A stretch of DNA of 64,000 bases from an uncultured bacterium (GTDB lineage Bacteria; Verrucomicrobiota; Verrucomicrobiia; Verrucomicrobiales; DEV007), in NCBI GenBank assembly GCA_963977015.1, contig CAXBMO010000016.1:87045-151044 (forward strand), read 5' to 3'. This document shows, in pieces, positions 6,463 through 38,736 of this stretch. The notes under the pieces were generated by a model that made no database searches, had not been told where the DNA came from, and worked only from the letters and a program-made list of their open reading frames with translations. The translations under genes were made by a program, and so were the position numbers. Positions within the stretch are counted from its first letter, which is position 1, and each line of letters starts with the position of its first letter.

Positions 6463-6683
6463 TGTGCGTGTGCCTCTAGGTGAATGAAGGCTTTGCCTTC
6501 ACGGTTTAAGGCATTGTTCCTGTCAACAAATGACGCCGACGGCAAGGAAAAAGTGTCGAGCGACGAGTTGAACGGACCTTTGCATGGGTTTTTTGGCAAT
6601 AAACCGGACTCCCAACCTGCCAGCGCTCGATTCTGAAGACCCGAAATTCGCTCGACCAACCCGCGAGGCTCTGGGAAACTTGA

Positions 6684-7466
6684 GTGATGGGCCAGTTCCA
6701 GGAAATCACCCAACACGCGATCTCCAACGCCAGCTACCTGCAAATCTTTCTGGGGATTTACATCACGTTTGGGTTGTTCTATTTCGGGTTGGCATTTCTC
6801 ACCTTGCGCTTCACGCGCGATTGGCTTCCCAAAGCTGGAATTGGGCGTCTCATCGACGGTCGGCCCCTCAAGCCGGGCCAGATGAAACGCGAGATGAAGA
6901 ACTCCCTCGTTTCCATCGGTATTTTCGCCCTGTACGGAGTGCTGACCATCGCGTTGGAACGGAAGGAGTGGCTTGTGATTCAGTGGGAATTCGGATTTTG
7001 GGACTTTGTGATCGACCTCCTCGTGATTGCGCTCTGGAACGAACTGCATTTTTACGCGTGCCATGCGTTGCTTCATCGCAAGTGGCTCTATCGGAGGATC
7101 CATCGGGAACACCACCGATCGGCCATCCCCACGCCTTTTTCGACGTTCAGCTTCCATTGGATCGAAGCCGTCATGTTAAGCAGTGTGATGATTCTGCTGA
7201 TGCCGTTCCGGCATTTGAACATCGGCGTGATCCTCTTTTTTCCCGTCGCAAGCCTGATCTACAACAACATCGGTCACATGAACTACGCGGTGTTTCCACA
7301 GCATCGGTTAGGAAGCTTTTTTTCCTCCTGCCGCCGTCACACCATGCATCACACCCGAATCCGGGGAAACTACGGGTTCGTGTTGCCGTGGTTCGATTTT
7401 CTTTTCAAAACCCGAGCGCGCAACGTGGACTACGACGCACCTCTCGAAGACCTGCCCGAAGCTTAA
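6684..7466 (+). CDS. Sterol desaturase / fatty acid hydroxylase family membrane di-iron enzyme
   Basis: His boxes HALLH, HREHH and HTMHH, plus FHWIE and NYG motifs; hydrophobic segments. Confidence 0.9.
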   Translation: MMGQFQEITQHAISNASYLQIFLGIYITFGLFYFGLAFLTLRFTRDWLPKAGIGRLIDGRPLKPGQMKREMKNSLVSIGIFALYGVLTIALERKEWLVIQWEFGFWDFVIDLLVIALWNELHFYACHALLHRKWLYRRIHREHHRSAIPTPFSTFSFHWIEAVMLSSVMILLMPFRHLNIGVILFFPVASLIYNNIGHMNYAVFPQHRLGSFFSSCRRHTMHHTRIRGNYGFVLPWFDFLFKTRARNVDYDAPLEDLPEA

Positions 7467-7788
7467 AGCGCGCGCCGCGGCGGCCGGGAAGCACTACAAC
7501 CAAGCACTTCCCGACCACCCACCTCGCGCGAGAGATGGCCCGTACACCTCTCATCCACTCGACCTTCACAGGTCGTTTCGTTCTACCTTCTGACCTCCCA
7601 AATCCGCATCAAGGTTGCCCTCCCTGATTCGAACTCAGTCGATCGCCCCAAGTCGGCGATCTCATTCGTTTCTTGGGGAGAAGTCCTCGAAAGTGACACC
7701 CCAAAATGAAAAAAATTTCAGGAATGTGCTGAATTCCTTGCTAATGGTGCTGGTCGATTGGATAGATGCCCTAGTTGAAGATGATGTC

Positions 7789-8502
7789 ATGAATCAGGAA
7801 GGAAACGCAGCATTTCCAACCACCGCGTGGAGCACGGTTCTTCGTGCCAAAAAAGGAAGCGAGGCCGACTTCGAAACTTTGTGCAAACGCTATTGGTATC
7901 CCCTTTATGCCTTTGCCAGGCGCTCTGGAAAGTCCCCCGAGGAAGCGGAAGACCTAACGCAAGGCTTTATCTTCAAGCTGATGCAGCGCAATTGGCTTGA
8001 GCAGGTCAATCCAGACGACTGCAAGCTCCGAACCTTTCTCCTGACGCGGCTCAAATCCTACATGAGGGATGAGTGGAAGAAGCAGACCGCCCAAAAACGC
8101 GGTGGTGTCGAAGCCCTCCCCAAACTCGATTACGAGTCCGCAGAGCGCTTTTACTCCTCTGAAATGTCCGACAAACTCAGCGCCGATCGTGTCTATCTGC
8201 GGTCTTGGGCCTCGGAAATGCTTCGAAGAACGCATCGCACGCTTCGCAATTACTACGCCAAGAAAAACCAGGCCAAGGAATTCGAAACGCTCTATCCCTA
8301 CATTCCGAAAGACGAGAAGCTCAAACCTTATTCCGAGGTCGCCGCAGAACTCGGGACCACCGAGGATTGGGTGAAAACCAACGTTAGCCGGATGCGAAAG
8401 CGCTATCGCATGGTTCTGGAAAGCGAAGTTCGTGAAACGTTGGCCAGCGCCTCGGAGTTGGAAGAGGAACTCGCCAGCCTGATGACGGCTTTCAGCAGTT
8501 AG
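7789..8502 (+). CDS. PVC-type ECF RNA polymerase sigma factor
   Basis: FPTTAWSTVL N-terminus, YWYPLYAFARR, AEDLTQGF, LRTFLL, and region-4 YSEVAAELG...VSRMRKRY. Confidence 0.9.
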   Translation: MNQEGNAAFPTTAWSTVLRAKKGSEADFETLCKRYWYPLYAFARRSGKSPEEAEDLTQGFIFKLMQRNWLEQVNPDDCKLRTFLLTRLKSYMRDEWKKQTAQKRGGVEALPKLDYESAERFYSSEMSDKLSADRVYLRSWASEMLRRTHRTLRNYYAKKNQAKEFETLYPYIPKDEKLKPYSEVAAELGTTEDWVKTNVSRMRKRYRMVLESEVRETLASASELEEELASLMTAFSS

Positions 8503-8667
8503 CGCATAACCTGAAAACTAACCCGACCTCGAATCGGTTTGGGATCGAGAGATAGCCCCTTCGCTTCGCGGCATGGATTGGTGATTGTGAATCTTCTGCC
8601 CGATCTCACCGTTGCGTCTTCAGACACGAAGCTCGCAAAGCCTGCCCACAGCCCCTAACGACTACCC

Positions 8668-9159
8668 TTAGACTGGAAGAACCAGATAAACGCTATCGTT
8701 CTCCGTCTGGAAAACAGCTTGGTTGCACTTCAACATCTCCACCGTCGACGTGGGAGCTGTGTTGTTGAAAACGCGAACTTCGACCACCGCGAGTCTCGGA
8801 CAATTCGACAACTCGACCGGTAAACTCCCCAATCGCGGATCCCTTCCATCGGTTTGAAACGTGCTCATCTGAAGTGCGCCGCCGTTCTCGGCACATTTCA
8901 TCGATTGTACCATCAAATTCGTAATGATTTCCGTCACTTCTTCCTCCGGGGTGGCAACCAATGGTAGATCCAGAGACAGCGCAGTTCGGAGGTTGATGCC
9001 CGCGCATCGTAGGTGGAAGTGCAACCGCTTCAGGCACTTCTTGACCACTTCGGTCAAATCCGTCTCCCCTTGGCTGCCTCGTGTTGTGGGCCGCTCAACT
9101 TCGTGGTTATCTGCATATTCTGCGGAACCACCCACCACTGAATCACTTTGCTCGATCAT
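8668..9159 (-). CDS. Hypothetical protein resembling a degenerate histidine-kinase ATPase N-box region
   Basis: DLTEVV...LSLDLPLV...EIITNLMVQSMKCAENGGALQMST resembles the kinase pattern QVLMNLxxNAxDAMPxGGxLxIxT; no H-box or G1/G2 boxes visible. Start uncertain. Confidence 0.45.
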   Translation of the reverse strand: MIEQSDSVVGGSAEYADNHEVERPTTRGSQGETDLTEVVKKCLKRLHFHLRCAGINLRTALSLDLPLVATPEEEVTEIITNLMVQSMKCAENGGALQMSTFQTDGRDPRLGSLPVELSNCPRLAVVEVRVFNNTAPTSTVEMLKCNQAVFQTENDSVYLVLPV

Positions 9160-9266
9160 TCTCTCTCGCTTTCTGTTCACTACGAGGACAGGCGATGACG
9201 AAGGTGACACAACTCCGCGAAAAAAAAGAAACCCCACCCGCTGTGACGAGTGAGGTTCAGAAAATT

Positions 9267-9674
9267 GAAATCAATCTTCATAAGCCGAATTTTGTCCCGC
9301 CCGAAAGCGGTGACGGCCATTTATCTAATCACTCCGAAGAGCAATTCCCGCCCGAAGGCAGGTGCGACTATTACCCGGGTTTATCCACCGTAAGGTGACC
9401 GAACTGGCAGCTCGTTCGCCCTGTTATGTCTTGCACCGCACGGGGTTTACCTTGCCTCCCCGGTTACCCGAAGGAGCGGTGAGCTCTTACCTCGCCATTT
9501 CACCCTTACCCGCACCCGAAAGCACAGGCGGTATCTTTTCTGCGGCACTTTCCGTCGATCCCGCATTATACGGAACCTCCCTGGTTTTCACCAGGCATGC
9601 TGCCATGTGGTGTTCGGACTTTCCTCTCGCCAAAAACCGAAATTTCTGACGAGCGACCGTCTCGGATTGATTTC
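9267..9674 (-). ncRNA. rnpB: RNase P RNA (type A)
   Basis: Minus strand carries GAGGAAAGTCC, GAAAGTGCCGCAGAAA, GGTAAACCCC and ACAAAATTCGGCTTA. Terminal P1 pairing GAAATCAATC/GATTGATTTC defines the ends. Confidence 0.95.
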
Positions 9675-9792
9675 CCCTCAGGTTAATCGCTGCAAAAAAA
9701 TTCGCAACATTCACTTTTGGCGTGACTCGGATTTTCAAATCCGATACCCTGCAGCCAGCCTGACACGTCTCTTACCCTCAAACACACAATCT

Positions 9793-10296
9793 ATGAAAAT
9801 CCTACGCCACTCCCCCGAGTGGATGCGGGCGGTCGCGAAGGCATCGGATGGAAAAACGACCAACTGGTTGTCAGTCGTCGTTCTCTATGATGACGCCCAA
9901 CTCGCCCATGCCGCATCGCGAAAATGCCGCGAAATTGAAAAAAACGTCGATCACGCCAAGATCTACGCCATTCGGACGATCAACCTGAACACCCTACCGG
10001 GCAGCGAAGGCTCTCAGATGGCCAGCGCGGAAGCCGCAACCGCCGATCTCGTGTTCGTTTGCCTTAAAACTGATCACGAACTCTCCCGCTGGACCCAGCT
10101 CTGGATGCGGGAATGGGCCTCCAAACGACAGCAGAACGCTGGCGCGTTAATCCATTTCTGCCATCAAGAACATTGCGATGATTGGAGAACGACTCTCGTC
10201 CGCGAGTTTCTCGGAACGGTCGCATCCCTGGGGCACATGGAACTTGTCGAAGCCGGCACTGAGCAAAACACACCGACCTATTCCGGACTGAATTAG
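9793..10296 (+). CDS. Conserved hypothetical protein (Verrucomicrobia-like)
   Basis: Clean ORF with alpha/beta pattern (VVVLYDD...AEAATADLVFV...WMREW...GALI). Confidence 0.6.
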   Translation: MKILRHSPEWMRAVAKASDGKTTNWLSVVVLYDDAQLAHAASRKCREIEKNVDHAKIYAIRTINLNTLPGSEGSQMASAEAATADLVFVCLKTDHELSRWTQLWMREWASKRQQNAGALIHFCHQEHCDDWRTTLVREFLGTVASLGHMELVEAGTEQNTPTYSGLN

Positions 10297-10388: not shown

Positions 10389-11525
10389 TTAGCCAACGGC
10401 TTCGAGCGTCCGCTTCAGCGTCCCCGTCAACTCATCGGCTGCCGCCGCCGAGAGCGGAGCTTTCGTCACCATACTGAGGCAAACCGGGCCGTAGCGCGTT
10501 TCACAGCCGAGCACGCAAAGCCACTGTTCCGATCCCATCGGTAAGTAAACTCCCGAACTGGCTCCTTCTCCGCCAACTTTCGGCCCAACGTTCTCGAGCA
10601 CTTTCATGAGCTGGAGAGCCGACCCCACAAACGAAGCTTCCTGCTGCTTCTCGTCTTCCATCAGGGAATAACCCTGACCATCGGTGATTTGAAACCGGGT
10701 GCATTCGGTCACTTGATGAACCCAATCACCATAGGCCTGCAGTCGAATGCGAAGCGATCCTTGAGGCAGCAACAGAACCTGGTCGAGATTCTCGGCAACT
10801 TCCTCATCCTCAGCCGATTCCGGCTCTCCTTCGACGATCTGCTCAACTTCTTCTTCCTCTTCCGGTAAAACGGCCTCCACGGGTGGCTCGGGAACCGAAC
10901 TTGGCGGCTGGGGAAGATTTTCCGAAACGGGAATCTCTTCCGCTTCTTCTTCGATCGCCTCCGGATCGGACTCGGCCTTCAAGAAGGGCTCTGTATCTTC
11001 GGCTTCCGGAAGGGAACTACGTCCCAAGCGCCGAATATGGGCCAGCGTTTCGTCCGCTCGCACCTTGCTCTGCATCGAAATCACTTTGGGCGGTGGAATA
11101 TCGTCTTCGTCTTCGACAATCTGCTCATCCTCTCCCGAATCCGGCTCCACAATGGCTTCCGGCTGATCTGGCTCTTCAGAAGGGGGAGCCAGATCCTCCT
11201 CAACAGGTGCCTTTTCCGTGAAGATAGCTTCCGATTCAACGATCTTGTCTTCCGCAACCTCCTGTTTTTGAGGCACTTCCAACTCATCCAAGCTGGGAAA
11301 CGAACTCAACCCGTCGGATTGAACCTTCTCCCAAGCCAACGGAATGTCGGGCACCAGTGAAACTGGCGCGTCGTCCAAAGAAGAACCTGCCTGAGGGGAG
11401 CGAAGCGGCGGAAGTTGCGGAGGTTGCCCGGAATCTTTTGCCTTTTCGTCGGGCATCAATTGCTCGACCAGCTTCGCGATCTCGCTGAGATCAATCCATG
11501 AGTCGGATGAGTCGTGGGGTGGCAT
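10389..11525 (-). CDS. Hypothetical protein: Glu/Pro-rich linker plus globular C-terminal domain
   Basis: Overlaps the ParA stop. Long acidic low-complexity middle and a ~125-aa alpha/beta C-terminus. Confidence 0.7.
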   Translation of the reverse strand: MPPHDSSDSWIDLSEIAKLVEQLMPDEKAKDSGQPPQLPPLRSPQAGSSLDDAPVSLVPDIPLAWEKVQSDGLSSFPSLDELEVPQKQEVAEDKIVESEAIFTEKAPVEEDLAPPSEEPDQPEAIVEPDSGEDEQIVEDEDDIPPPKVISMQSKVRADETLAHIRRLGRSSLPEAEDTEPFLKAESDPEAIEEEAEEIPVSENLPQPPSSVPEPPVEAVLPEEEEEVEQIVEGEPESAEDEEVAENLDQVLLLPQGSLRIRLQAYGDWVHQVTECTRFQITDGQGYSLMEDEKQQEASFVGSALQLMKVLENVGPKVGGEGASSGVYLPMGSEQWLCVLGCETRYGPVCLSMVTKAPLSAAAADELTGTLKRTLEAVG

Positions 11526-12309
11526 CTTCGTCTTCTGAGGTATCAAGGTTCATGCGTCCCTCCAATTCGGCCGCCAATTGCTCGAAAATCAGCGCCAAGG
11601 GCGTCGGGTTCTTCTGCAACAAGCCTAGGGGAACGCCGTAATCGCTGGCCCGGAGGAACATGGGGTCGCGCGGAATGGTCGTATCGAGCATCAACTCGCC
11701 GGGCAGCATCTGGCGCATTTTTCGCAAAACATCAAGGCTGGTCGGATCGTCCCGCTGCACCATGGTCGCCAAAATTCCGGCAACCTTGATCGGAGGATCC
11801 TTCTTCGATAACTCCGCCATGCGTTGCAGAACCTGTGGCAAACTCCGCATCGCAAGCGGCTCCGCCTGCTCGGGAATCATCACGTAGTCCGCCACGCTCA
11901 ACAAATCGCTGGTCACACTGTGTGTTCCCGCCGGGGTATCGATCACGATAATCTCGAAATCCATCAGGTTGATTTGCGAGAACAAGGTCTCGACCTGAGC
12001 GCGGCGGGCGTCCGGATCAACGGCAATCGGCGTCTTCAAAAACCGCTCGTAGTCTCCCGCCGTCAAAATCTGGAACTCGGGCAACCGAGTCTTGATCATG
12101 AGTTCTTCCAGGCTATCACCGACCATGGCATCAAAAAACCCACGGTTGGAGTTGGCTTTGTCCGTCACGGAAAGGCCCACGGATCCCTGGGGATCACAAT
12201 CAAGTAGCAAAACCCGCCAGCCGCGTCGTGCCAGGCTGTAAGCAAGGTTCACGGCGACCGTGGTTTTCCCCACGCCTCCTTTTTGGCTAGATATACAAAG
12301 CTTCGTCAC
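11491..12309 (-). CDS. ParA/Soj family ATPase
   Basis: SQKGGVGKTT deviant Walker A, LLLDCDPQGS, IVIDTP. GTG start at 12309 is probable. Confidence 0.9.
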   Translation of the reverse strand: MTKLCISSQKGGVGKTTVAVNLAYSLARRGWRVLLLDCDPQGSVGLSVTDKANSNRGFFDAMVGDSLEELMIKTRLPEFQILTAGDYERFLKTPIAVDPDARRAQVETLFSQINLMDFEIIVIDTPAGTHSVTSDLLSVADYVMIPEQAEPLAMRSLPQVLQRMAELSKKDPPIKVAGILATMVQRDDPTSLDVLRKMRQMLPGELMLDTTIPRDPMFLRASDYGVPLGLLQKNPTPLALIFEQLAAELEGRMNLDTSEDEDATPRLIRLMD

Positions 12310-20366: not shown

Positions 20367-22778
20367 CTATTTGGTTCGAAAGGCTTCACTGGAGACGACG
20401 ATTTCTACCAGCTTTCGCAAACGGTAATCGTTCTCGGCAAACTCGTGACGTATTCCCTCGATCTCCGGTTCATCGGTGAGTTCCAGCGTCCGGCCCACCG
20501 CATAACTCAAGAGCTTGGAAACCAAGGCGTGAGCAAACTGATCTTTCCGTTCCGTCAGAAGAAAGGCTCGCAGTTCTTCGACGCCCTTTACCTCATGACC
20601 ACCGGGCAGCACATCCATCGCCACCACCGGATTCGAGACAAACTTTTTGCCCGCCTTCCGCCGAATCGTCTCTCGATAGAGCCCGACCGCATCAAAATGT
20701 TCCAACGCGATCCCCCAGGGATCGATCCCGCGATGGCAATCGACACAACCGGGCTCGTCACGGTGAGCGGCGAGTTGTTCACGAACCGTCAACTTCGCGA
20801 AATCCGGGTTCTCCGCGTCCAGACTCGGCACATCGGGCGGAGGTGGCGCCGGTGGATCGTGAAGCAGACGTTCCCGAATCCAGACCGCCCGTTTGATGGG
20901 ATGAGAGTCTTCCCCGGTCGACGCTCCCAGCAACGTGCTCGCCTGAGTCAACAATCCCCCTCGCCGCGAATCGGATGCCAGCACCACTTTCTCAAACGCC
21001 GTGGTTCGCGGGCCATTCTCAAGGCCGTAGTGACGAGCGAGCGGTTCATTTGCCATGACGAAGTCCGAGTCCAGAAACAAAAGCGCTGACAAATTCTGTT
21101 CCAGAATTTCCGCGAAGAACGCCTCGGTTTCCTGACGCATCCACGGCTTCAGCGCAGGATCGAAATCCGGGTAATATTCGGGATTGATCGCCACCCGATC
21201 CAACTGGTCCAGATCCAGCCATTGACCGGTAAACTGCTTCACGAAGCGACGCGATTTCGGACTCTGCAACATCCGCTCAACCTCGGCCGAAAGCGTCGCC
21301 GGATCGCTCAGGGTTCCCGCCTTCGCCAACTCAAAGAGCCGGTCGTCCGGCATCGAACTCCACAGAAAATAGGAAAGCCGCGAAGCCAGTTCATATTCGT
21401 TCAAGGGTCGCTTTTCGTCCGACGAACCCGGTTCCACCAGAAACAGAAACTCGGGCGAGATCAATGCCATCGCCAACGTCTCTCGCGCCGCTTCTTCGAA
21501 GGTCTCAAAGGTGGGGCGAACTTTGGCGAAGTAACGTTGCAGATTCTTCACCTCCACTTCGGTTGGCGGCCGACGAAACGCCCGCGCGAGAAACTGCTCC
21601 AGAACTTCCCTCATATAAACCAACTCCCCTTCTTCCCGGGTCGCCGAGTCAGGCAAAATCTGCCGGTGATGGTTCGGCGGCCAGGCCTCGAAAATCGGCG
21701 ACTTGAACTCGACGGACTCGACCACAATTTGCGGGAAATCGGGATCGGCTTCGTAAATGGTTTTCCTGGACTTCTTCTTCGGGTTCTTGGGATTGACCGT
21801 TTCAATCGTCATCGCCTCCTTCACGTTCTTCCCATCGTGATAAGCATTGGAAACCCAGATCAACAGTCCCGGGTACTTGCTCTGAACACGGCTCTGCAGC
21901 GGGAACTCTTCAAGGCGGCCGCGAAGCACGTACTCCCTGGACTCAGGCGCCACATCAATCCTGGCAACTTCCCGCGACGGTCGCTGCGTGTCGGCACGAT
22001 AACCCAGATCCACTTTCATCACCGGATAAGCCGAGTCCTGCGTCGGCAGCTTCGCGTGAGCTCGGACCCGAATTTCAAACTCGCCTTCTTCCGGAAAATC
22101 GGGAACGCGGGAGACAAACACACCGCTGCGGGCAAGTTGATTCGTGAAGTTCCCCCTACCCTTGTCCGCATCGCTCTTCTCCGTGAGGTGAACAACGGGC
22201 TCGGGCTCGGGACCCAACACGATCGCCCGGCTCAGGGCATTGCGCGCCGTGGCAAGAAAGTGTTCCAGTTGCATCGCCGACATCCCCAACGAAGCGCCGT
22301 TGTTCTGAAATCCATCCGGGCTCAAGGGATCACTCGGCAGATTTCGGACGTAGTTGAGATCCAGCCTCAGCAGATCCTGCATCGTGTTCTGATATTCCAC
22401 TCGGTTCAGCCGCCGAATCACCACCCGACCTCCACTTGACTGCTTCGCCGCAATCGCGCGTTGCAACTCATCATTGATCCAATCGCTCAACACCTTGCGC
22501 TCGGCATCGGACGGCTGAGCTTCGTCGTCAGGCGGCATCTCTCCGAGTTGCAGGGCGTTCAACGCGTCGTGCCAGGTTTCGGCCGCCGCGGAATCGGCTA
22601 GCATGTCCGTCGAAAGCGTGTCGAATCGCACCTTGCCCTTTTCCCGGTCCGGTCCGTGACAACGGATGCAGTAGTCGTTCAAAACGGGACGAACATCACG
22701 GTCAAAATCCACGTCTGCAGCCATGGCAAACGCCGGAATCAAGCAAAGGAAAGGAAGTGGCAGGTGGCGAAACATCAT
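20367..22778 (-). CDS. DUF1592-domain protein (planctomycete cytochrome c + DUF1587/1595/1592/1588/1585)
   Basis: CIRCH, RRLNRVEYQNT, ELASRLSYFLWSSMPD, RGGLLTQ, CVDCH, FDAVG. Confidence 0.9.
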   Translation of the reverse strand: MMFRHLPLPFLCLIPAFAMAADVDFDRDVRPVLNDYCIRCHGPDREKGKVRFDTLSTDMLADSAAAETWHDALNALQLGEMPPDDEAQPSDAERKVLSDWINDELQRAIAAKQSSGGRVVIRRLNRVEYQNTMQDLLRLDLNYVRNLPSDPLSPDGFQNNGASLGMSAMQLEHFLATARNALSRAIVLGPEPEPVVHLTEKSDADKGRGNFTNQLARSGVFVSRVPDFPEEGEFEIRVRAHAKLPTQDSAYPVMKVDLGYRADTQRPSREVARIDVAPESREYVLRGRLEEFPLQSRVQSKYPGLLIWVSNAYHDGKNVKEAMTIETVNPKNPKKKSRKTIYEADPDFPQIVVESVEFKSPIFEAWPPNHHRQILPDSATREEGELVYMREVLEQFLARAFRRPPTEVEVKNLQRYFAKVRPTFETFEEAARETLAMALISPEFLFLVEPGSSDEKRPLNEYELASRLSYFLWSSMPDDRLFELAKAGTLSDPATLSAEVERMLQSPKSRRFVKQFTGQWLDLDQLDRVAINPEYYPDFDPALKPWMRQETEAFFAEILEQNLSALLFLDSDFVMANEPLARHYGLENGPRTTAFEKVVLASDSRRGGLLTQASTLLGASTGEDSHPIKRAVWIRERLLHDPPAPPPPDVPSLDAENPDFAKLTVREQLAAHRDEPGCVDCHRGIDPWGIALEHFDAVGLYRETIRRKAGKKFVSNPVVAMDVLPGGHEVKGVEELRAFLLTERKDQFAHALVSKLLSYAVGRTLELTDEPEIEGIRHEFAENDYRLRKLVEIVVSSEAFRTK

Positions 22779-24564: not shown

Positions 24565-24627
24565 ACCAAATCTTTCCCCTTGCTTCCAAGTATCTTCCTT
24601 CTTTACCCTCACCCAGATCTTGAGGCC

Positions 24628-27600
24628 ATGGCAGACGAGAATATCTCCTTCACTCTGAAACGCGAATACTGGTGCTTCATCAGCTATCGGCATTCCGATA
24701 ACACCGAGCCCGGTCGCGAGTGGGCCTCCTGGCTCCATCACAGCCTGGAAACCTACGAGGTGCCCAAGGACCTCGTCGGCAAAACCAACGAGCGCGGCGA
24801 AACCATCCCGGCCCAGATCTACCCCGTCTTCCGCGACGAAGAAGAACTTGCCGCCGGCCATCTCAAGGAAGGCATTCGCGCCGCTCTTGCAGTCGCCAAA
24901 TCGCTCGTCGTCATCTGCTCCCCCCGCACGCCGGAGTCGGAATACGTCGACGAAGAAATCCGCACCTACCAGCAATTGCGCAACCAGGAAATCCGCGAAG
25001 GCAAAACACCTCGCCGTGCCGATCCCATCATCATGGTCATCGAGGGCGACCCGCAAGCCGATCCTGCTGACAGCAAAGCAGCCTGCCTCCCGAAAAGCCT
25101 CCGGTATGAGATCGACGAAGCGGGTCAAATTACCGACCGGCCCGCACCGGAATCCCTCTGGATGGATTTCCGCCCGCCCACCGGCGAACCTGGTTGGACG
25201 TCCTCGGGCGCCTACCGCGAAGCTGCTCTGGAAGCCGGTTCTTCCGATGACAAAAAGGCCATCGAGTCCGAAGTCGCCGCCTACGCCAAAAAGCTGGACA
25301 ACCTCAAGCTCCAAATCATCGCTGGGATTCTCGGGGTTCCGCTGGGCGAGGTGCAGAAGCGGGACGAAGCTTATCAGGCGATGAAAGCGCGCAAACGCGT
25401 TCGTGCCTTGCGCCTCTGGTTGGCGGCAGTGGGGGTGTTTGCGGTAGCTGCTGTGATTGGCGGAATTGTCGCGGTCAATCAGCGTGAAAAGACCGTCACT
25501 GCGCAGCTGCTAAGCCAAAAGGAAAAGGCACTCAGGCAAAAGGAAATCGAATATCGTGCGGAAGAGCAAATCCAGCTAGGAATCGCAGCTAGCAATCTCA
25601 AAAATCGAGATGAGGCGGCGATTCGCCATCTGCTCGGCTACGAGTTGGCCGAGACTCATGAAGAAACTCGCCAGGCAGCCACCGAGCTAATTGCCAATGT
25701 TCCGAAACCTTTGCAGATTCTTCGCCACCAAAGTGCCGTTGAACGTGCAAAGTTCATAAGTTCGACAGACCTGTTGATAAGCGTCAGCGAAGATAAGACA
25801 GCAAAAATTTGGAATACCCAAAGCGGACAAATTGTAGGCGAAATTAATGCGCGTCAAAGTGATGTCAGATCGATGGAATTCAGCAATGAAGGTCAATCTT
25901 TCTTTACTCTGAATGGGCGCTCCACAGTTCAAATCTGGGACACACGAAGCGGGAGACGTATCGGTGAGCCGCTTAAACATGAATCATATGTAGTAAGCGG
26001 AGAATACAGCGTAGACGGCAGTCGCATAGCTACAGTCAGTAGCAAAAAGGCGTGGATTTGGGACGTGGGAAGCCGGAGGCAGATCGTCGGACCCCTGGTT
26101 CATGGAAGTTACAATCTGAGAGAGGCACGGTTCAGCGCAGACGGTACAAAAGTCATCACTATAGGCGACTTTGCAGTTAGAATTTGGAATCTAGAAAGTG
26201 GATTGCCCGTCGGCGAGCCGCTAGTTCATGAAGGTAGAATCACCATAGCAAAGTTCAGTTCCGACGACAGGCTTTTGCTCACGGCAGATGATGGCGGTTC
26301 TCTGAAAATATGGGATGCCAAAAGTGGTGTACCGGTTGGTAACGCCTTTCAACACGAACATTCCATTTACGATGCTCAATTCGCTCCAGATAGCCTGCGT
26401 GTCGCTACAGCGAGCAGAGACCAAACAGCACGAATCTGGAACCTACAGAATAGCAAACCGGTCGGTGAGCCCCTTCGGCATGAAGCTTCTGTCGTTAGTG
26501 TTGATTTTAGTGCGGACGGACGCTTTTTAGTCACCGCCAGCGCGGACGGCACTGCGCGAATCTGGGACGCGACCAGCGGACTGCCTGTTGGTGCCCCTCT
26601 CCATCAAAGTGGTCTCGTTGGTGGAGCAAAGTTCAGTGTAGACGGGCACCAGGTTCTCACTTATGGGAGGACCGGTGAGGTTGTGAAAATCTGGGACGCA
26701 GAATATGGCCAATCCGTGGGCGAAGTATCATTCGGCCAAGAGTCAGCCTTTGCTGACTTGCACTTCTCTGCAAAGGGAGCTCGCGTACTCTCGACCACCG
26801 GGAACACGGCACGAATTTGGGACCTGCTGACTGGACAGCCAATCGGCGAGGTTTTTGCGCATGAATGGGATGTCTACGGTGCGAAATTCAGCGTAGACGG
26901 ACGATTTGTGGTAACGGCAAGTTTTGACCGCACGGCTCAAATCTGGGACGCGAATACCAGTTTGCCCGTCGGTGCACCTCTTGAACATGGGGGGATAGTA
27001 AGGAGAGCAATTTTCAGCGCCGATGGGCGCCGTCTCTTGACTATTGGTAGGGACGATCGAATCGTGCAAATATGGGACGCGGTTGCAGGCCAGCGGATCG
27101 GCAACGGCCTTAGCCACGATTCATTTGTAGTGAGCGGGAAGTTTAGTGCGGACGGGCATCGTGTAGTAACGGTAAGCGATAATCGGTTGGCTAGGATTTG
27201 GAACGCAGAAGCCGGGCAGCTTGTGGGTGAGCCTATCGCCCATGAGAGGGTGGTATTCAGTCCTGAATTCAGCCCAGACAGCCAGCGATTGTTTACAGCA
27301 ATCAATAGCGATTCGATTGGTCTTTGGGACTCCAATACGGGGCAATCCATCGGCATCCCTCTCACGCACAGGTTTAGTATCAATGGAGTTCGATTCAATC
27401 CCAACGGTCGAACTTTAGTTACAGCAAGCGACGACTGTACAGCGCAGATTTGGGACGTGCAAAACGGTCATCCTGTTGGTGATTCGCTTCGGCATGGGGG
27501 TAGCGTCTCCAGCGCAGAGTTCCGAGGGGACGGACGTCGTGTGGTGACGGCAAGCTTGGACGGGACAGTGCGGATCTGGGATGCAGAAACCGGTCAACAG

Positions 27601-28092
27601 ATCGGCGAGCCCTTACGCCACGATGACAAGGTATTTCATGCGCGATTCGATGCAAATGGCCGTCGAATTATTTCTCTGGATGCTGAAGGTTCCGCCAGAA
27701 TTTGGGCTACGACAACCGGCCAGCAACTTGGCGAGGCGTTTACCCACAAAAGCAAAATTCGTTCGGCAGAATCCAGTGGCGACGGCCGCTACCTGATCAC
27801 AAGAAGTCAAGATTCGATTCGTACTTGGAATATGCCAGCCCCGGCTTGGGACGACCCTGAATGGCTCAAGCTCTCAGTAGAATACCGCTCAAATCATATC
27901 TACGATCACGAAAGCCGACTGATCCGAAAATTGACTTACCCGGAACACTTAGAGCGCCTGAAGTCGCTGCACGAAGAATACTCCGATGAACTCTGCGACT
28001 CCCCAACGTGGGAGCAAATCGACCGCTGGGTCGCAGAACAACGGCCGGGTTGGGAGAGTATGGTCCAATTTTCGAAGCAATCCGAACCTTGA
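24628..28092 (+). CDS. TIR domain - transmembrane helix - WD40 repeat protein
   Basis: YWCFISYRHSD, VFRDEEEL and LVVICSP...SEYVDEEI (TIR); hydrophobic LWLAAVGVFAVAAVIGGIVAV; 17 repeats of about 42 aa of type LxH...FS.DG..V.T.S.D.TA.IWD. Confidence 0.92.
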   Translation: MADENISFTLKREYWCFISYRHSDNTEPGREWASWLHHSLETYEVPKDLVGKTNERGETIPAQIYPVFRDEEELAAGHLKEGIRAALAVAKSLVVICSPRTPESEYVDEEIRTYQQLRNQEIREGKTPRRADPIIMVIEGDPQADPADSKAACLPKSLRYEIDEAGQITDRPAPESLWMDFRPPTGEPGWTSSGAYREAALEAGSSDDKKAIESEVAAYAKKLDNLKLQIIAGILGVPLGEVQKRDEAYQAMKARKRVRALRLWLAAVGVFAVAAVIGGIVAVNQREKTVTAQLLSQKEKALRQKEIEYRAEEQIQLGIAASNLKNRDEAAIRHLLGYELAETHEETRQAATELIANVPKPLQILRHQSAVERAKFISSTDLLISVSEDKTAKIWNTQSGQIVGEINARQSDVRSMEFSNEGQSFFTLNGRSTVQIWDTRSGRRIGEPLKHESYVVSGEYSVDGSRIATVSSKKAWIWDVGSRRQIVGPLVHGSYNLREARFSADGTKVITIGDFAVRIWNLESGLPVGEPLVHEGRITIAKFSSDDRLLLTADDGGSLKIWDAKSGVPVGNAFQHEHSIYDAQFAPDSLRVATASRDQTARIWNLQNSKPVGEPLRHEASVVSVDFSADGRFLVTASADGTARIWDATSGLPVGAPLHQSGLVGGAKFSVDGHQVLTYGRTGEVVKIWDAEYGQSVGEVSFGQESAFADLHFSAKGARVLSTTGNTARIWDLLTGQPIGEVFAHEWDVYGAKFSVDGRFVVTASFDRTAQIWDANTSLPVGAPLEHGGIVRRAIFSADGRRLLTIGRDDRIVQIWDAVAGQRIGNGLSHDSFVVSGKFSADGHRVVTVSDNRLARIWNAEAGQLVGEPIAHERVVFSPEFSPDSQRLFTAINSDSIGLWDSNTGQSIGIPLTHRFSINGVRFNPNGRTLVTASDDCTAQIWDVQNGHPVGDSLRHGGSVSSAEFRGDGRRVVTASLDGTVRIWDAETGQQIGEPLRHDDKVFHARFDANGRRIISLDAEGSARIWATTTGQQLGEAFTHKSKIRSAESSGDGRYLITRSQDSIRTWNMPAPAWDDPEWLKLSVEYRSNHIYDHESRLIRKLTYPEHLERLKSLHEEYSDELCDSPTWEQIDRWVAEQRPGWESMVQFSKQSEP

Positions 28093-28166
28093 CGTGGTGA
28101 TTTGGGGATTGCTAGTGGAATTATTCGGACCCTCAAACAGTTACCGGTGGGCGAAAGTGAGCACAA

Positions 28167-28478
28167 TTGGCGGCTCTCTATCTCAAGGCGCTGGAGGCGG
28201 AAAACTGGGCTGCGGCGGAGACTTTTACGTCACAGCGACTGGCCAAGATGAAGCCGGGGGCGGAACGGCTCACCTGGGCCAATTCGAGCGTCGTCTGGGC
28301 CGTGACGCAGGTGATTCCCAACCAAATCGACGCTGCCTTGCAGAACGGCTTCATCAAGCTGGCCGAAATGCGCCTCGCCTCTTCCAAGGTGTTTGCCGCG
28401 ACGTTGCCGGAGGCGCATCGGGCGCATTTCGCGGATCTGGAGCGCAAGATTGCGGAGGCGAGGGCCAACGCGGATTAA
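28167..28478 (+). pseudogene. Orphan helical C-terminal gene fragment 1
   Basis: TTG-initiated ORF with no obvious RBS and host-like codon usage; its last ~30 aa are homologous to 28584-28680. Confidence 0.5.
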
Positions 28479-28485
28479 ACGACAA

Positions 28486-28582
28486 GGAGCGGCGACAATC
28501 CTGTCGCCCCCGGTGCCCTTGAATGACCTGCCGCGCACGAACTGCACGGATACTTCGCGGGCGACAGGATTGTCGCCGCCCC
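28486..28582. repeat. GGAG-type REP-like inverted pair
   Basis: GGAGCGGCGACAATCCTGTCGCCC (28486-28509) and GGGCGACAGGATTGTCGCCGCCCC (28559-28582) match at 23/24 as reverse complements; each arm is itself a hairpin. Confidence 0.8.
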
Positions 28583-28583
28583 G

Positions 28584-28680
28584 TGCGCCTCGCCTTGGCC
28601 AAGGTGTTTGCCGCGAGGCTGCCGAAGGAGGAGAAGTATCGCGCGCTTTTTGAAGACCTTGCGCGGAAGATTGCGGAGGC
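28584..28680 (+). pseudogene. Orphan C-terminal gene fragment 2 (diverged copy of 28369-28459)
   Basis: RLALAKVFAARLPKEEKYRALFEDLARKIAEA versus RLASSKVFAATLPEAHRAHFADLERKIAEA. Confidence 0.6.
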
Positions 28681-28712
28681 CCCAAGTTTCCGAGCTACTG
28701 ACCAGAATCTGA

Positions 28713-28739
28713 CTCTGCGTCTTGGCGGCTCTGCGTGAG
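28713..28739. repeat. Solo 27-bp repeat of the same family as 24494-24564
   Basis: CTCTGCGTCTTGGCGGCTCTGCGTGAG is 24/27 identical to the reverse complement of 24494-24520. Confidence 0.7.
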
Positions 28740-28776
28740 GGTTCCCGGCAACCTGAGATCCGACTTCGCTCGCAGC

Positions 28777-29229
28777 CTACCGCCTTCGTTTCGGCGGCAA
28801 TTTGATCAGCTGGGTGCCTTCCAGATCTTCCCGTGCCTGGCGGGCCATGGCGGCGGCCACTGGATTGACATCGGAATCTCCTTCGTCCATCGGCTCGGGA
28901 ACTTCCAATTCCTCCACGGTCAGGATGTTGAGTGTGACGGCTTTGCCGAGGATGACTTCGTCGCCGTATTGGATCAACAAGGCATCCCAGCCCACCGCCA
29001 TCCCATTGATCTGAGATCCATTGGTCGATCCGAGGTCGCGAAAGATCCATTGGGAGGAGTCCGCGCCTTTGACAAATTCGCAGTGCGTGTTGGAGAGCGC
29101 TGGATTGTCGATCTGGAGATGATTGTGCTTCGAGCGTCCAATGCGAATCAGGTCTCCGTCAACGTGGAAACAGCGAGGTGCCTCGTTCGACACCGTCACC
29201 ATGAGAACAGTCTTGAGTATTAAGCTCAT
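28777..29229 (-). CDS. FHA domain protein
   Basis: IGRS, LSNTHC and DLGSTNGSQING FHA motifs. Confidence 0.9.
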   Translation of the reverse strand: MSLILKTVLMVTVSNEAPRCFHVDGDLIRIGRSKHNHLQIDNPALSNTHCEFVKGADSSQWIFRDLGSTNGSQINGMAVGWDALLIQYGDEVILGKAVTLNILTVEELEVPEPMDEGDSDVNPVAAAMARQAREDLEGTQLIKLPPKRRR

Positions 29230-29593: not shown

Positions 29594-30922
29594 ATGACCA
29601 AATCGTGGCATCTTGATCGTCGCACGCTGCTTCACGGGGCGGGCGCTTCCCTTGCGCTTCCTTTTCTGGAATGCATGGGCGCAGCGACTCCGGCGTCCGA
29701 GCTTCCGAAACGATTTTGCGCAATGTATTTCCCCTATGGCGCGAGCACGCCGCCGGACAATCATGAAGACCGAAAGTGGGGATTTTTGCCGACGGGCGAA
29801 GGGCGCGATTTCCAGTTTACGGAGAGCCTGAAATCGCTCGAGCCATTGCGTGACCAGGTTTCCTTCCTCCAGGGCCTGTCTCACCCCAACGGGCGAAGCA
29901 TGGGAGGTCACGATACTGCCGACATTTTTTTGACCGGCGCCAAGCTCAAAGGCGGTGAGCTGAAAAATTCCATTTCACTCGACCAGGTGCTGGCCCAGCC
30001 GATTGACGGGCAAACGCGCTTTACCTCGCTCGCGCTTTCGACCGATGGAGGCGTGGGCGAGCCGAGCCGTTCGAGCACGCTCTCGTTCAGTCAAACCGGT
30101 CAGCCCATTCCGGCCCTGAACTCTCCCCGGGTGCTGTTCGATCAACTCTTTGGGGCAAACAGCGCCTCACTCTCAGCCCAACGCCGCGAACTGGTCAATT
30201 CCGGGAGCATGCTGGATCTGGTTCTGGAACACGCGAAGTCGGTTCGCGGAAATCTCGGCCGTCTGGACCAACAGAAGTTTGACGAGTACCTCGATTCGGT
30301 TCGCCAGATCGAGCAGCGCGTCGAGCGCTCGCAGGAGTGGCTCACGGTTCCCAAACCCCAGGTCAACGCCACGGGCCTGCATCTCGAAGCGGACGACAAC
30401 ACGCCCGCCGATTTGATCCGCACGATGTATGATCTGCTCTTTCTCGCGTTTCAAACCGATTCCACCCGAGTGGCGACGTATCAGCTCGGCAACATGAATG
30501 GCGCGACCTCGATTGCCGGGAAGTTTCCCCAGCTGCTCGGCCTCGGGAAGACCATGCACAGCACCGCTCATGGCGCCGGCAAACCCGGCGGATTCAAGGC
30601 ACAGGGAAAGTGGGATCAATTCCTCGCGTCCCAACTGGCCTACTTCCTGAACCGGCTGGCCTCCACGCCGGAAGGATCGGGAAGTCTGCTGGACCGCACG
30701 GTCGTGTTTTACGGGTCGAGCAACAGTCGCACCCACAACAACTCGAACTACCCGCTGGTTCTGGCCGGAGGCAAAGACCTCGGGTTCCGTGGCGGGGCGC
30801 TGCACAAGTTCGACGCCAAAACGCCGCTCTCGAATCTCTTCGCCACGATTCTCCATCAACTGGGCAATCCGGCGGAAACGTTTGCCGACAGCCGCGGGGA
30901 GATGACCGAGGTTGTGGGTTAG
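29594..30922 (+). CDS. DUF1552 domain protein
   Basis: LDRRTLLHGAGASLALPFLE, YFPYG, NSISLDQ, LDRTVVFYGS, YPLVLAGG. Confidence 0.9.
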   Translation: MTKSWHLDRRTLLHGAGASLALPFLECMGAATPASELPKRFCAMYFPYGASTPPDNHEDRKWGFLPTGEGRDFQFTESLKSLEPLRDQVSFLQGLSHPNGRSMGGHDTADIFLTGAKLKGGELKNSISLDQVLAQPIDGQTRFTSLALSTDGGVGEPSRSSTLSFSQTGQPIPALNSPRVLFDQLFGANSASLSAQRRELVNSGSMLDLVLEHAKSVRGNLGRLDQQKFDEYLDSVRQIEQRVERSQEWLTVPKPQVNATGLHLEADDNTPADLIRTMYDLLFLAFQTDSTRVATYQLGNMNGATSIAGKFPQLLGLGKTMHSTAHGAGKPGGFKAQGKWDQFLASQLAYFLNRLASTPEGSGSLLDRTVVFYGSSNSRTHNNSNYPLVLAGGKDLGFRGGALHKFDAKTPLSNLFATILHQLGNPAETFADSRGEMTEVVG

Positions 30923-38016: not shown

Positions 38017-38137
38017 AAGCAACGTCAAAGGCACCCCATCCCCGATCAAGGTTGCGGATGAATTGAAGTGAACGTGTTCGAAATACGTTCATGCGCCAAC
38101 TCCACAGCAGGTCGGGGTTTGATCATCGCTGACTTGG
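38017..38137 (-). other. attC-like imperfect hairpin
   Basis: Arms AACGTCAAAGGCACCCCATCCCCGATC and GGTCGGGGTTTGATCATCGCTGACTTGG with inner TGAACGT/ACGTTCA. Overlaps the stop of the upstream ORF; minus-strand GTT lies 12 nt before the next ATG. Confidence 0.5.
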
Positions 38138-38464
38138 TATCTCTGTATCAATGCTCCTCCACTGGCGAATCATGTCATATTCTGCATCCGCATGAATTCG
38201 TTCCAGTCGCTTCTGCGAAACGTTCTTCGATTGAACCTCAATGTGAGCCGATTCGGGTTCATATTCGTACACTCGAACCTGAACCTCCACATTCCCATTC
38301 GAATAGAGCGTGTAATGCTTCGCTGAAACTTGATCGTCCTGCGCATCGGCAAAGATACTTTCGATTTGCTTGCTTGATAAATTTACATCCAAGACACAAC
38401 GGAGCCCGAATAGAGTGCGTCGCAACCGCTCATCGATTGTCGCCAAGATGGATGCTCTCTTCAT
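38123..38464 (-). CDS. Hypothetical protein
   Basis: 113-aa ORF in a low-GC segment; no recognised motif. Confidence 0.5.
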   Translation of the reverse strand: MKRASILATIDERLRRTLFGLRCVLDVNLSSKQIESIFADAQDDQVSAKHYTLYSNGNVEVQVRVYEYEPESAHIEVQSKNVSQKRLERIHADAEYDMIRQWRSIDTEIPSQR

Positions 38465-38736
38465 TTCTTTAGATACCTTTATGTGGGTGACAGATGTTTC
38501 AAATCAACCCAACAACTTTGACACGGAAATGGGTGGTGCGTTGAGGGGACGAAATCTTGAGGAACCTACTCTCCATACTGCAAAGAGAATTCGATGCCGG
38601 CGGAAAGGTCAAGGGGCTATTTGGAACTGGATTCGAGCGGAGGTCGTCATTCTTTAACCCGTTTTCGATGTCGGGCAAGGGACGTTGAAGAGCAATGGTT
38701 CCCTCCTGTACTACCTCCCAAACCCAGCCATCAAAC

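Follow-up and report, generated by a model that had tools for sequence, protein, structure and literature searches.

How does a receptor-like gene come to be followed by two diverged copies of a protein end that is not its own? The question is raised by a TIR-TM-WD40 gene and the short stack of fragments behind it in the stretch of DNA analysed here (64,000 nucleotides in all, hereafter the window). Bacterial TIR and STAND proteins that carry a WD40 or TPR body are regarded as sensors of conflict systems, and the locus bears on the way in which their sensor parts diversify. The features of the locus are listed below with the evidence on which each assignment rests.

24628–25485, plus strand: head, with a TIR-like domain and one hydrophobic helix (Pfam; alignment with P0001)
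25486–28092, plus strand: apparently replaced segment, made up of linker B, WD40 body B and tail B (end of DNA similarity; GC3; Pfam WD40)
27781–28089, plus strand: tail B, the present C-terminus, followed by the stop codon TGA (28090–28092)
~28140–28478, plus strand: orphan copy 1, a nearly complete old-type C-terminal domain of ~115 codons (homology to the C-termini of P0001, P0002 and P0003)
28483–28585, no strand: inverted repeat with two hairpins (repeat search, motif count, RNA fold)
28583–28738, plus strand: orphan copy 2, made up of the final 33 codons of a second tail of the old type (28583–28681) and a leader remnant (tblastn)
28777–29229, minus strand: convergent FHA-domain gene, the right bound of the stack (Pfam FHA, 6.3e-13)

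Architecture of the TIR-TM-WD40 gene

The open reading frame spans 1170 codons (24580–28092, plus strand) and encodes a TIR-like domain, a hydrophobic helix near residues 280–300 and a long WD40 region. It opens at a TTG (24580); alignment with P0001 makes the ATG at 24628 the likely start of the gene. The head scores 30.9 bits against Pfam TIR_2 (cut-off 28) and 27.9 bits against ThsB_TIR (cut-off 21.2), so that a TIR-fold domain is recognised. No NTPase family was found by Pfam in residues 1–327, and the protein thus departs from the STAND/NLR-like plan with its central NTPase, unlike its relatives P0003, P0131 and the gene at locus L006, in which a STAND-type NTPase is present. The WD40 region is matched by Pfam WD40, and the best 25 families of the whole-protein comparison are all beta-propellers. 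Of 7997 proteins scored, 446 belong to the family of the head at E<=1e-5; in these it is joined to various bodies, WD40, TPR and ankyrin among them, and the names recorded come mostly from Verrucomicrobiota. Within the 64-kb window, the head query matches 24628–25479 and no second head fragment.

Apparent decoupling of head and body

The head is shared with P0001 at 87% amino acid identity (window residues 17–300), and at the DNA level with the P0001 gene at locus L002 (85.6% over 863 nt, ending at window position 25487). Directly after the hydrophobic helix, the identity between the two proteins drops to the level of any two WD40 regions. P0001 ends in the old-type tail, and its WD40 body and tail are unrelated to those of the window gene despite the shared head. 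P0001, P0002 and P0003, all from one MAG, share a linker (that of P0001 is 50% identical to that of P0002 over 129 residues and 34% to that of P0003), a WD40 body of near-identical repeats (body A) and the old-type tail, and carry three different heads. Similarly, the linker, body and tail of the window gene are found together in P0131, where they follow an NTPase head with its hydrophobic helix. P0131 is the sole protein to share linker B (41–42% identity) together with tail B (55% over 83 residues, at the C-terminus of P0131 as well). Head/body junctions lie just past the TM helix in several of these proteins. Because an 87% identical head is joined to an unrelated body and tail, body A to three heads and body B to an NTPase head, the conserved 5' part of these genes is evidently decoupled in evolution from an exchangeable 3' part.

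Base composition changes at the same place. GC3 is 0.71 in the head, which resembles the neighbouring genes, 0.50 in the body and 0.58 in tail B, and then 0.78 and 0.79 in orphan copies 1 and 2; the other open reading frames of the window mostly range from 0.56 to 0.76, with two low outliers. The compositional break thus falls between the kept head and the acquired body, and the orphans are native-like. A codon seam had been pointed out in a preliminary description of the locus, and the GC3 break indeed brackets the replaced part. Because of this seam and the discontinuity in sequence between head and body, ~2.6 kb (25486–28092) look acquired, set between a native-looking head and a native-looking orphan tail. 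The left junction would lie at the end of the conserved head (~25486) and the right one within 28093–~28140. Among the best 120 of 7372 proteins with E<=1e-20, the outside relatives of the body are 31–45% identical to it and no donor was found. We note that tail B has no Pfam family, that the present tail matches only itself within the window, and that a query with the old-type tail gives no match to 27787–28089; the earlier remark that neither fragment resembles the present C-terminus is borne out.

The WD40 repeats of the P0001 body (L002:7960–9740) are 69–74% identical to each other in DNA over hundreds of bases, which is compatible with repeat homogenisation.

Two orphan tails of apparently different alleles

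The two copies are co-oriented and lie in different reading frames, at 28369–28459 and 28584–28680. Their description as diverged copies of one peptide end with an in-frame indel was confirmed: a repeat search pairs 28369–28413 with 28584–28628 (45 nt, 87%) and 28409–28459 with 28630–28680 (51 nt, 76%), a local alignment of 97 columns contains 75 identities (77.3%) and a single 6-nt gap, and the translated ends, MRLASSKVFAATLPEAHRAHFADLERKIAEA and VRLALAKVFAARLPKEEKYRALFEDLARKIAEA, are 67% identical. When one copy was searched against the 64-kb window by tblastn, the match to the other had an E of 7e-7, compared with 1.3 for the next best; together with the alignment, this means that the match is not due to chance.

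Copy 1 proved to be much longer than the ~30 codons first ascribed to it, the original coordinates holding for its end. Its open frame runs for 105 codons (28161–28475) to a TAA stop (28476–28478), and homology can be followed further upstream as far as ~28140, where it lies in a different frame beyond a 2-nt insertion (+2 frameshift) near 28166–28172. It is 59–65% identical in amino acids to the C-termini of P0001, P0002 and P0003, and its closest match in DNA is the resident tail of L001 (81%). Copy 2 begins 6 nt past the second hairpin and repeats the last third of copy 1. It is cut at its 5' end at ~codon 70 of the domain, carries a private 6-nt insertion and has lost its stop codon, so that its open reading frame reads into a decayed post-stop leader, where the remnant CCCAAGTTTCC corresponds to CCTTGAGTTTC of L002 and L001. 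Neither fragment has a Pfam family, and no small gene follows either copy in the window.

Two co-oriented copies ~215 nt apart could also have arisen if the 3' end of the gene had been duplicated locally in tandem and the copies had then diverged. We rejected this explanation, which we hold to be extremely improbable: copy 2 is nearer to a tail in another genome, the resident tail of L002 (86.5%), than to copy 1 (77.3%), and the flanks are of different types, a hairpin after copy 1 and a leader remnant after copy 2. Because of these identities, the copies are best taken as different alleles and not as products of local duplication. With a frameshift in copy 1, and a lost stop and a 5' truncation in copy 2, both orphans appear to be decaying, and judging from their sequences they are probably silent.

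A rare domain at the end of long WD40 proteins

The origin of the fragments becomes apparent from database searches. In a search limited to longer proteins (1506 candidates, E<=0.01, 105-residue query), three matches were obtained, all of them long WD40 proteins, with 59–65% identity over 89–91% of the 105 residues. When 1.84 billion representatives were searched exhaustively with HMMER, seven proteins had E<=1e-3: the window's own open reading frame, P0001, P0002, the short P0124, P0125, P0126 and one weakly matching protein of 3933 residues. The matched region covers residues 1070–1159 of 1162 in P0001 and 1034–1120 of 1124 in P0002; P0003 (1936 residues) also ends in the old-type tail. Because the matches sit at the extreme ends of long WD40 proteins and number only seven by HMMER, the fragment represents a rare C-terminal domain of ~100 residues in TIR- or NTPase-TM-WD40 proteins. 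The preliminary description had asked whether the family would be found at the end of other such proteins, as it is in three of the three long matches; its stated counter-case, an unrelated small-protein family, does not apply, since the fragments match true C-termini of long proteins.

An AlphaFold2 model of the tail (6-row alignment) is compact and all-helical, with five helices and a pLDDT of 76.8. Foldseek found no match to this model in the PDB at E<=1e-3, the best being TPR-like chaperones (E~0.6), and the structure search gave no functional lead.

Could copy 1 be a functional small protein in its own right, made from the tail domain (ORF 28167–28478, 103 aa)? The intact 105-codon frame, its GC3 of 0.78, the predicted compact helical unit and the existence elsewhere of a tail-only ORF (P0124, 136 aa, on a 556-kb contig) speak for this, as does a dN/dS of 0.25–0.33 against resident tails; the latter compare among themselves at 0.15–0.38, so that no relaxation of selection can be made out. 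The 103-residue ORF has one other record, P0248, which is identical save for the start residue. However, the dN/dS values mostly reflect the time when the tail belonged to a gene, the domain loses its first ~10 codons to the frameshift and has a TTG in its interior as the sole start. The scan returned no promoter-like site, and the corresponding orphans of L002 and L001 are frameshifted. We consider a stand-alone function improbable.

The hairpin pair as a native 3' flank

Between the two copies lies an inverted repeat with 30-nt arms (28483–28512 and 28556–28585, 90% complementary) that contains two 7-bp hairpins (28491–28508 and 28560–28577). The hairpin motif occurs twice in the window, with 0.02 occurrences expected by chance, and the pair folds as RNA at −63.4 kcal/mol (z −4.6). 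A homologous hairpin follows 13 nt past the stop codon in L003 and L004, with its inverted partner also present in L004. Because it follows the stop of related genes, the pair is the native, conserved 3' flank of the old-type tail. The preliminary description had called it a REP-like pair: an inverted hairpin pair is there, but it is not a dispersed REP element, an assignment that we rejected since the motif is confined to a single locus of the window and is homologous to the post-stop hairpin of related genes. The hairpins have no T-tract terminator consensus, and a promoter and terminator scan returned none of either. The five Rfam matches on 27900–29000 all fall far under the gathering scores.

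Tail stacks and toxin-antitoxin cassettes in related loci

One genome scan with the 6-row alignment matched 40 stretches, of which seven were confirmed, giving six loci in two Verrucomicrobiales MAGs.

L002 (P0001 gene): resident tail; antitoxin-like small ORF and ParE gene; frameshifted full-length orphan tail; DUF6883 and DUF4926 genes; partial orphan tail
L001: resident tail; small ORF and PIN-domain gene; one frameshifted orphan tail
L003: tail, no cassette
L004: PIN gene after the tail; no second tail
L005: gene split by a frame change; contig stops 570 nt past the tail
L006: remnant lacking its 5' part and fused into another ORF (with three WD40 repeats, linker and half a tail)

Stacks of tails are therefore present in two of the six related loci, with two orphans behind the resident tail of L002 and one behind that of L001. 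In all material seen, five tails sit at gene ends and seven are remnants (including P0124). The remnant at L006 lies 1.8 kb behind an nSTAND1-WD40 gene with a different end.

Directly after the tails, or between tail copies, we find two-gene modules: ParE and its partner (ParE_toxin, 1.9e-14) and DUF6883 with DUF4926 (6.5e-29 and 6.9e-20) at L002, and PIN with its partner at L001 (1.9e-19), with a further PIN gene at L004 (2.4e-7). The small partner ORFs have no Pfam match or one under the cut-off (Phd_YefM, 19.5 bits). Known toxin families next to small partners, the hallmark of type II toxin-antitoxin pairs, thus occur in the related loci and not in the window. The cassettes occupy L002:10325–10848 and 11451–12027, L001:723–1341 and L004:~11050–11709. 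Those of L002 and L001 are inserts of 0.6–0.9 kb, the tails on either side being 71–81% identical. A post-stop leader of ~45 nt is common to L002 and L001 and reaches the ATG of two unrelated first cassette genes. The two orphans of L002 are 89–95% identical and share an identical 47-nt double-hairpin insertion. The orphan of L001 and the third tail of L002, in two different MAGs, are 87% identical and carry the same frameshift.

These arrangements raise another possibility for copy 2, namely that it could be the scar of an inserted and lost cassette instead of the trace of a second allele replacement. The tail would then be a multi-copy homology or attachment region at which toxin-antitoxin cassettes integrate and thereby duplicate it, through a single crossover of a circle carrying cassette and tail or through an unknown site-specific enzyme, and the cassette of the window would have been lost later. 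Tails interleaved with the ParE and DUF6883–DUF4926 modules at L002, tails flanking the PIN module at L001 and the PIN gene after the tail of L004 all fit this scenario, as do the leader that runs up to different cassette genes, a decayed version of which persists in copy 2, and the frameshift common to orphans of two MAGs. On the other hand, no cassette or cassette remnant lies between the window copies, where we find only the native hairpin flank. Copy 2 is truncated at ~codon 70, while the flanking orphans of L002 and L001 start at the beginning of the domain. Recent homologous recombination would find a poor substrate in tails of 71–81% identity, the inspected parts of the related loci showed no integrase, and the sample amounts to two loci in two MAGs. 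We regard the scar of a lost cassette as a tentative, rather doubtful explanation, and one that overlaps in part with displacement of the gene end.

Because toxin-antitoxin cassettes are flanked by tails in the relatives, our results do suggest that small modules integrate there through the multi-copy tail sequence as an additional process. The tails around these cassettes hint that a gene's 3' end may serve as a landing pad for small selfish modules. Should this role be general, receptor evolution would be linked with toxin-antitoxin mobility; if not, the window holds two pseudogene scraps. Taken further, the ~300-bp tail segment and its flanks might act in these Verrucomicrobiales as a portable recombination anchor, for exchange of sensor bodies upstream and capture of toxin-antitoxin modules downstream. 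This is an unlikely reading; were it true, rhs-like displacement would be acting on genes of the immune-receptor type instead of on toxins.

Minor features of these loci include the position of the 47-nt insertion, which is the same in both orphans (L002:11043–11089 and 12233–12279); the element is absent from all other tails and loci and from the window, and may be a miniature mobile or REP-like element. A tandem repeat with a period of 42/84 nt (5.4 / 2.7 copies, 77–78% matches) lies directly past the orphan tail of L001 (1795–2022). The TIR-WD40-tail gene of L005 (7995–10285) occupies two overlapping frames, 7995–9578 and 9542–10285, owing either to a frameshift or to an assembly error.

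Probable successive displacement of the gene end

With a probability of roughly 0.68, we interpret the fragments as pseudogenised 3' ends that two or more recombinational replacements left behind at a single receptor-like gene. They are homologous to true gene ends, head and body break in sequence as well as in composition, the orphans decay, and stacks of tails recur in related loci. The best reading of these observations in our analysis is that recombination passively displaced the C-terminal part, a process known from rhs and T6SS effector loci, and the original proposal of leftover 3' ends pushed aside by replacement, similar to the orphan modules of polymorphic toxin loci, fits the homology, the head/body break and the distinct alleles.

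The order of events and the mechanism of the replacements we infer as follows. The ancestral gene would have been P0001-like, with a cytoplasmic TIR-like head, a TM helix, a linker, a WD40 propeller, a helical tail of ~100 residues and the hairpin. In an earlier event, an incoming allele ending in copy 1 and the hairpin pair would have replaced the 3' part, with its right junction inside the previous tail, so that the last 33 codons of the latter were left as copy 2. In a later event, the gene would have been replaced from just past the TM helix to just before the tail: an incoming segment of ~2.6 kb with lower GC3 would have brought another linker, WD40 body, tail and stop codon, and copy 1 would have been stranded. 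Copy 2 would consequently be the oldest remnant and the one furthest downstream. The likeliest mechanism may be a recombination event that uses the conserved head as its anchor and joins at the right without homology, or else the integration of a circular intermediate by a single crossover; both have been put forward as models for rhs tips and T6SS effector modules. Since no donor, intermediate allele or orthologous locus was found and the flanks are not syntenic, the ancestral state can be reconstructed only indirectly; between the window and L001–L006, the flanks yielded only paralogous DUF1501-type matches.

Two further findings count against displacement. With its intact frame, its native GC3 and a dN/dS no higher than that between resident tails, copy 1 was either orphaned very recently or is still partly constrained. 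In addition, and unlike the pieces of rhs arrays, neither orphan contains a second copy of the conserved 5' sequence.

Comparison with known systems

In rhs loci, the old C-terminal tip is displaced to a downstream position, where it persists as a frameshifted and silent fragment (Jackson et al. 2009, PMC2935791). According to the excerpted text of that work, the arrays contain degenerate fragments and a break in G+C, which is lower in the incoming part, and the tips recur in other genomes. Our locus shares with this account the decoupling of a conserved 5' part from a variable 3' part, the lower-GC incoming part with its compositional break, the displaced, frameshifted and degenerate old end, and the recurrence of such ends in other genomes. 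It lacks the repeat of the core: in the same excerpts, every dissociated rhs piece begins with a partial copy of the core, to which a different toxin tip and a downstream partner gene are attached. The window pieces, in contrast, are homologues of one another that repeat the 3' tail without any head fragment; the domain that they encode is helical and has no toxin signature, and the gene is receptor-like and not a secreted toxin. Likewise, the toxin tip and cognate immunity gene of a polymorphic toxin locus have no counterpart in the window, where the fragments have no Pfam family and no small gene after them.

T6SS effector-immunity modules undergo sequential displacement by homology-facilitated illegitimate recombination (Kirchberger et al. 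2017, PMC5361080). As far as the excerpts of that study describe them, they have a conserved upstream anchor, a right end joined without homology and successive insertions that push back older 3' ends together with downstream genes, features that our locus would share on the reconstruction given above. They differ in what is kept: immunity genes under selection there, a non-functional tail in the window and complete toxin-antitoxin pairs in its relatives. To judge from these partial accounts (PMC2935791, PMC5361080), the pattern fits rhs C-terminal displacement and may fit homology-facilitated illegitimate recombination, both of them described processes; what is particular here is rhs-type displacement in a receptor-like gene. 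In the open-access full-text literature, we found no description of displaced ends behind TIR-WD40 genes. The locus may be viewed as a concrete footprint of whole-sensor replacement, with the head kept, a foreign body inserted and the old end stranded, a footprint of the same kind as the one that revealed tip exchange in rhs genes.

Bacterial TIR and STAND-NTPase proteins with WD40 or TPR sensor repeats are described from conflict systems (Kaur et al. 2020, PMC7159879). The window protein shares with those in the excerpts of that survey the combination of an effector-type head (TIR or NTPase) with a beta-propeller or TPR body, and differs from them in having no NTPase and a TM helix between head and body. 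The excerpts make no mention of displaced-tail stacks.

The arrangement around the cassettes of L002 and L001 also calls to mind elements that use the end of a gene as their target. The integrative elements e14 and phage 21 in icd carry a replacement copy of the 3' end of the target gene. As with these, a diverged gene end is duplicated on either side of inserted DNA around the L002 and L001 cassettes; unlike them, no integrase is seen, the inserts measure only 0.6–0.9 kb and nothing is inserted between the window copies. An integron-like cassette array would have an integrase and repeated sites, whereas the 14 ORFs neighbouring the window gene include no recombinase and the hairpin motif occurs only twice, as the tail's own 3' flank.

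The preliminary description went further and saw in the locus its best candidate for an undescribed diversifying system. In an active system of this kind, silent tails or bodies would be recombined into the expressed gene as a programmed exchange of sensors. In the material seen, the seven tail remnants do outnumber the five resident tails, head/body junctions coincide just past the TM helix in several proteins, and sensors of related conflict systems are diversified by other means according to the abstract of PMC10907252. We nevertheless consider an active system of this kind very improbable, because the 14 neighbouring ORFs include no gene for a recombinase, integrase, transposase or reverse transcriptase, the orphans are decaying (and are 77% identical to each other), and they have no similarity to the present 3' end of the gene on which switching could rely. 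For DGR-type diversification, too, these ORFs offer no reverse transcriptase. Silent WD40 bodies are absent from the 64-kb window, and the foreign composition of the body points to rare lateral acquisition. The claim of a diversifying system is consequently not upheld.

Surroundings of the locus

The 14 neighbouring ORFs encode sulfatases, peptidases, DUF1501/1552/1592-type proteins and the like. A DUF1592/1588/1585-type gene (20367–22778, minus strand) and a DUF1552 gene (29594–30922, plus strand) diverge, facing apart, and enclose a SASA-esterase gene, the TIR-WD40 gene, the orphans and the FHA gene. The DUF1592/1588/1585-type and DUF1552 families are usually adjacent partners, and the ~7 kb between the two genes may be an insertion. 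The two ORFs of low GC3 elsewhere in the window, 6584–7627 (plus strand, 0.42) and 38068–38472 (plus strand, 0.39), compared with 0.56–0.76 for most, may be other foreign insertions or may not be real genes.
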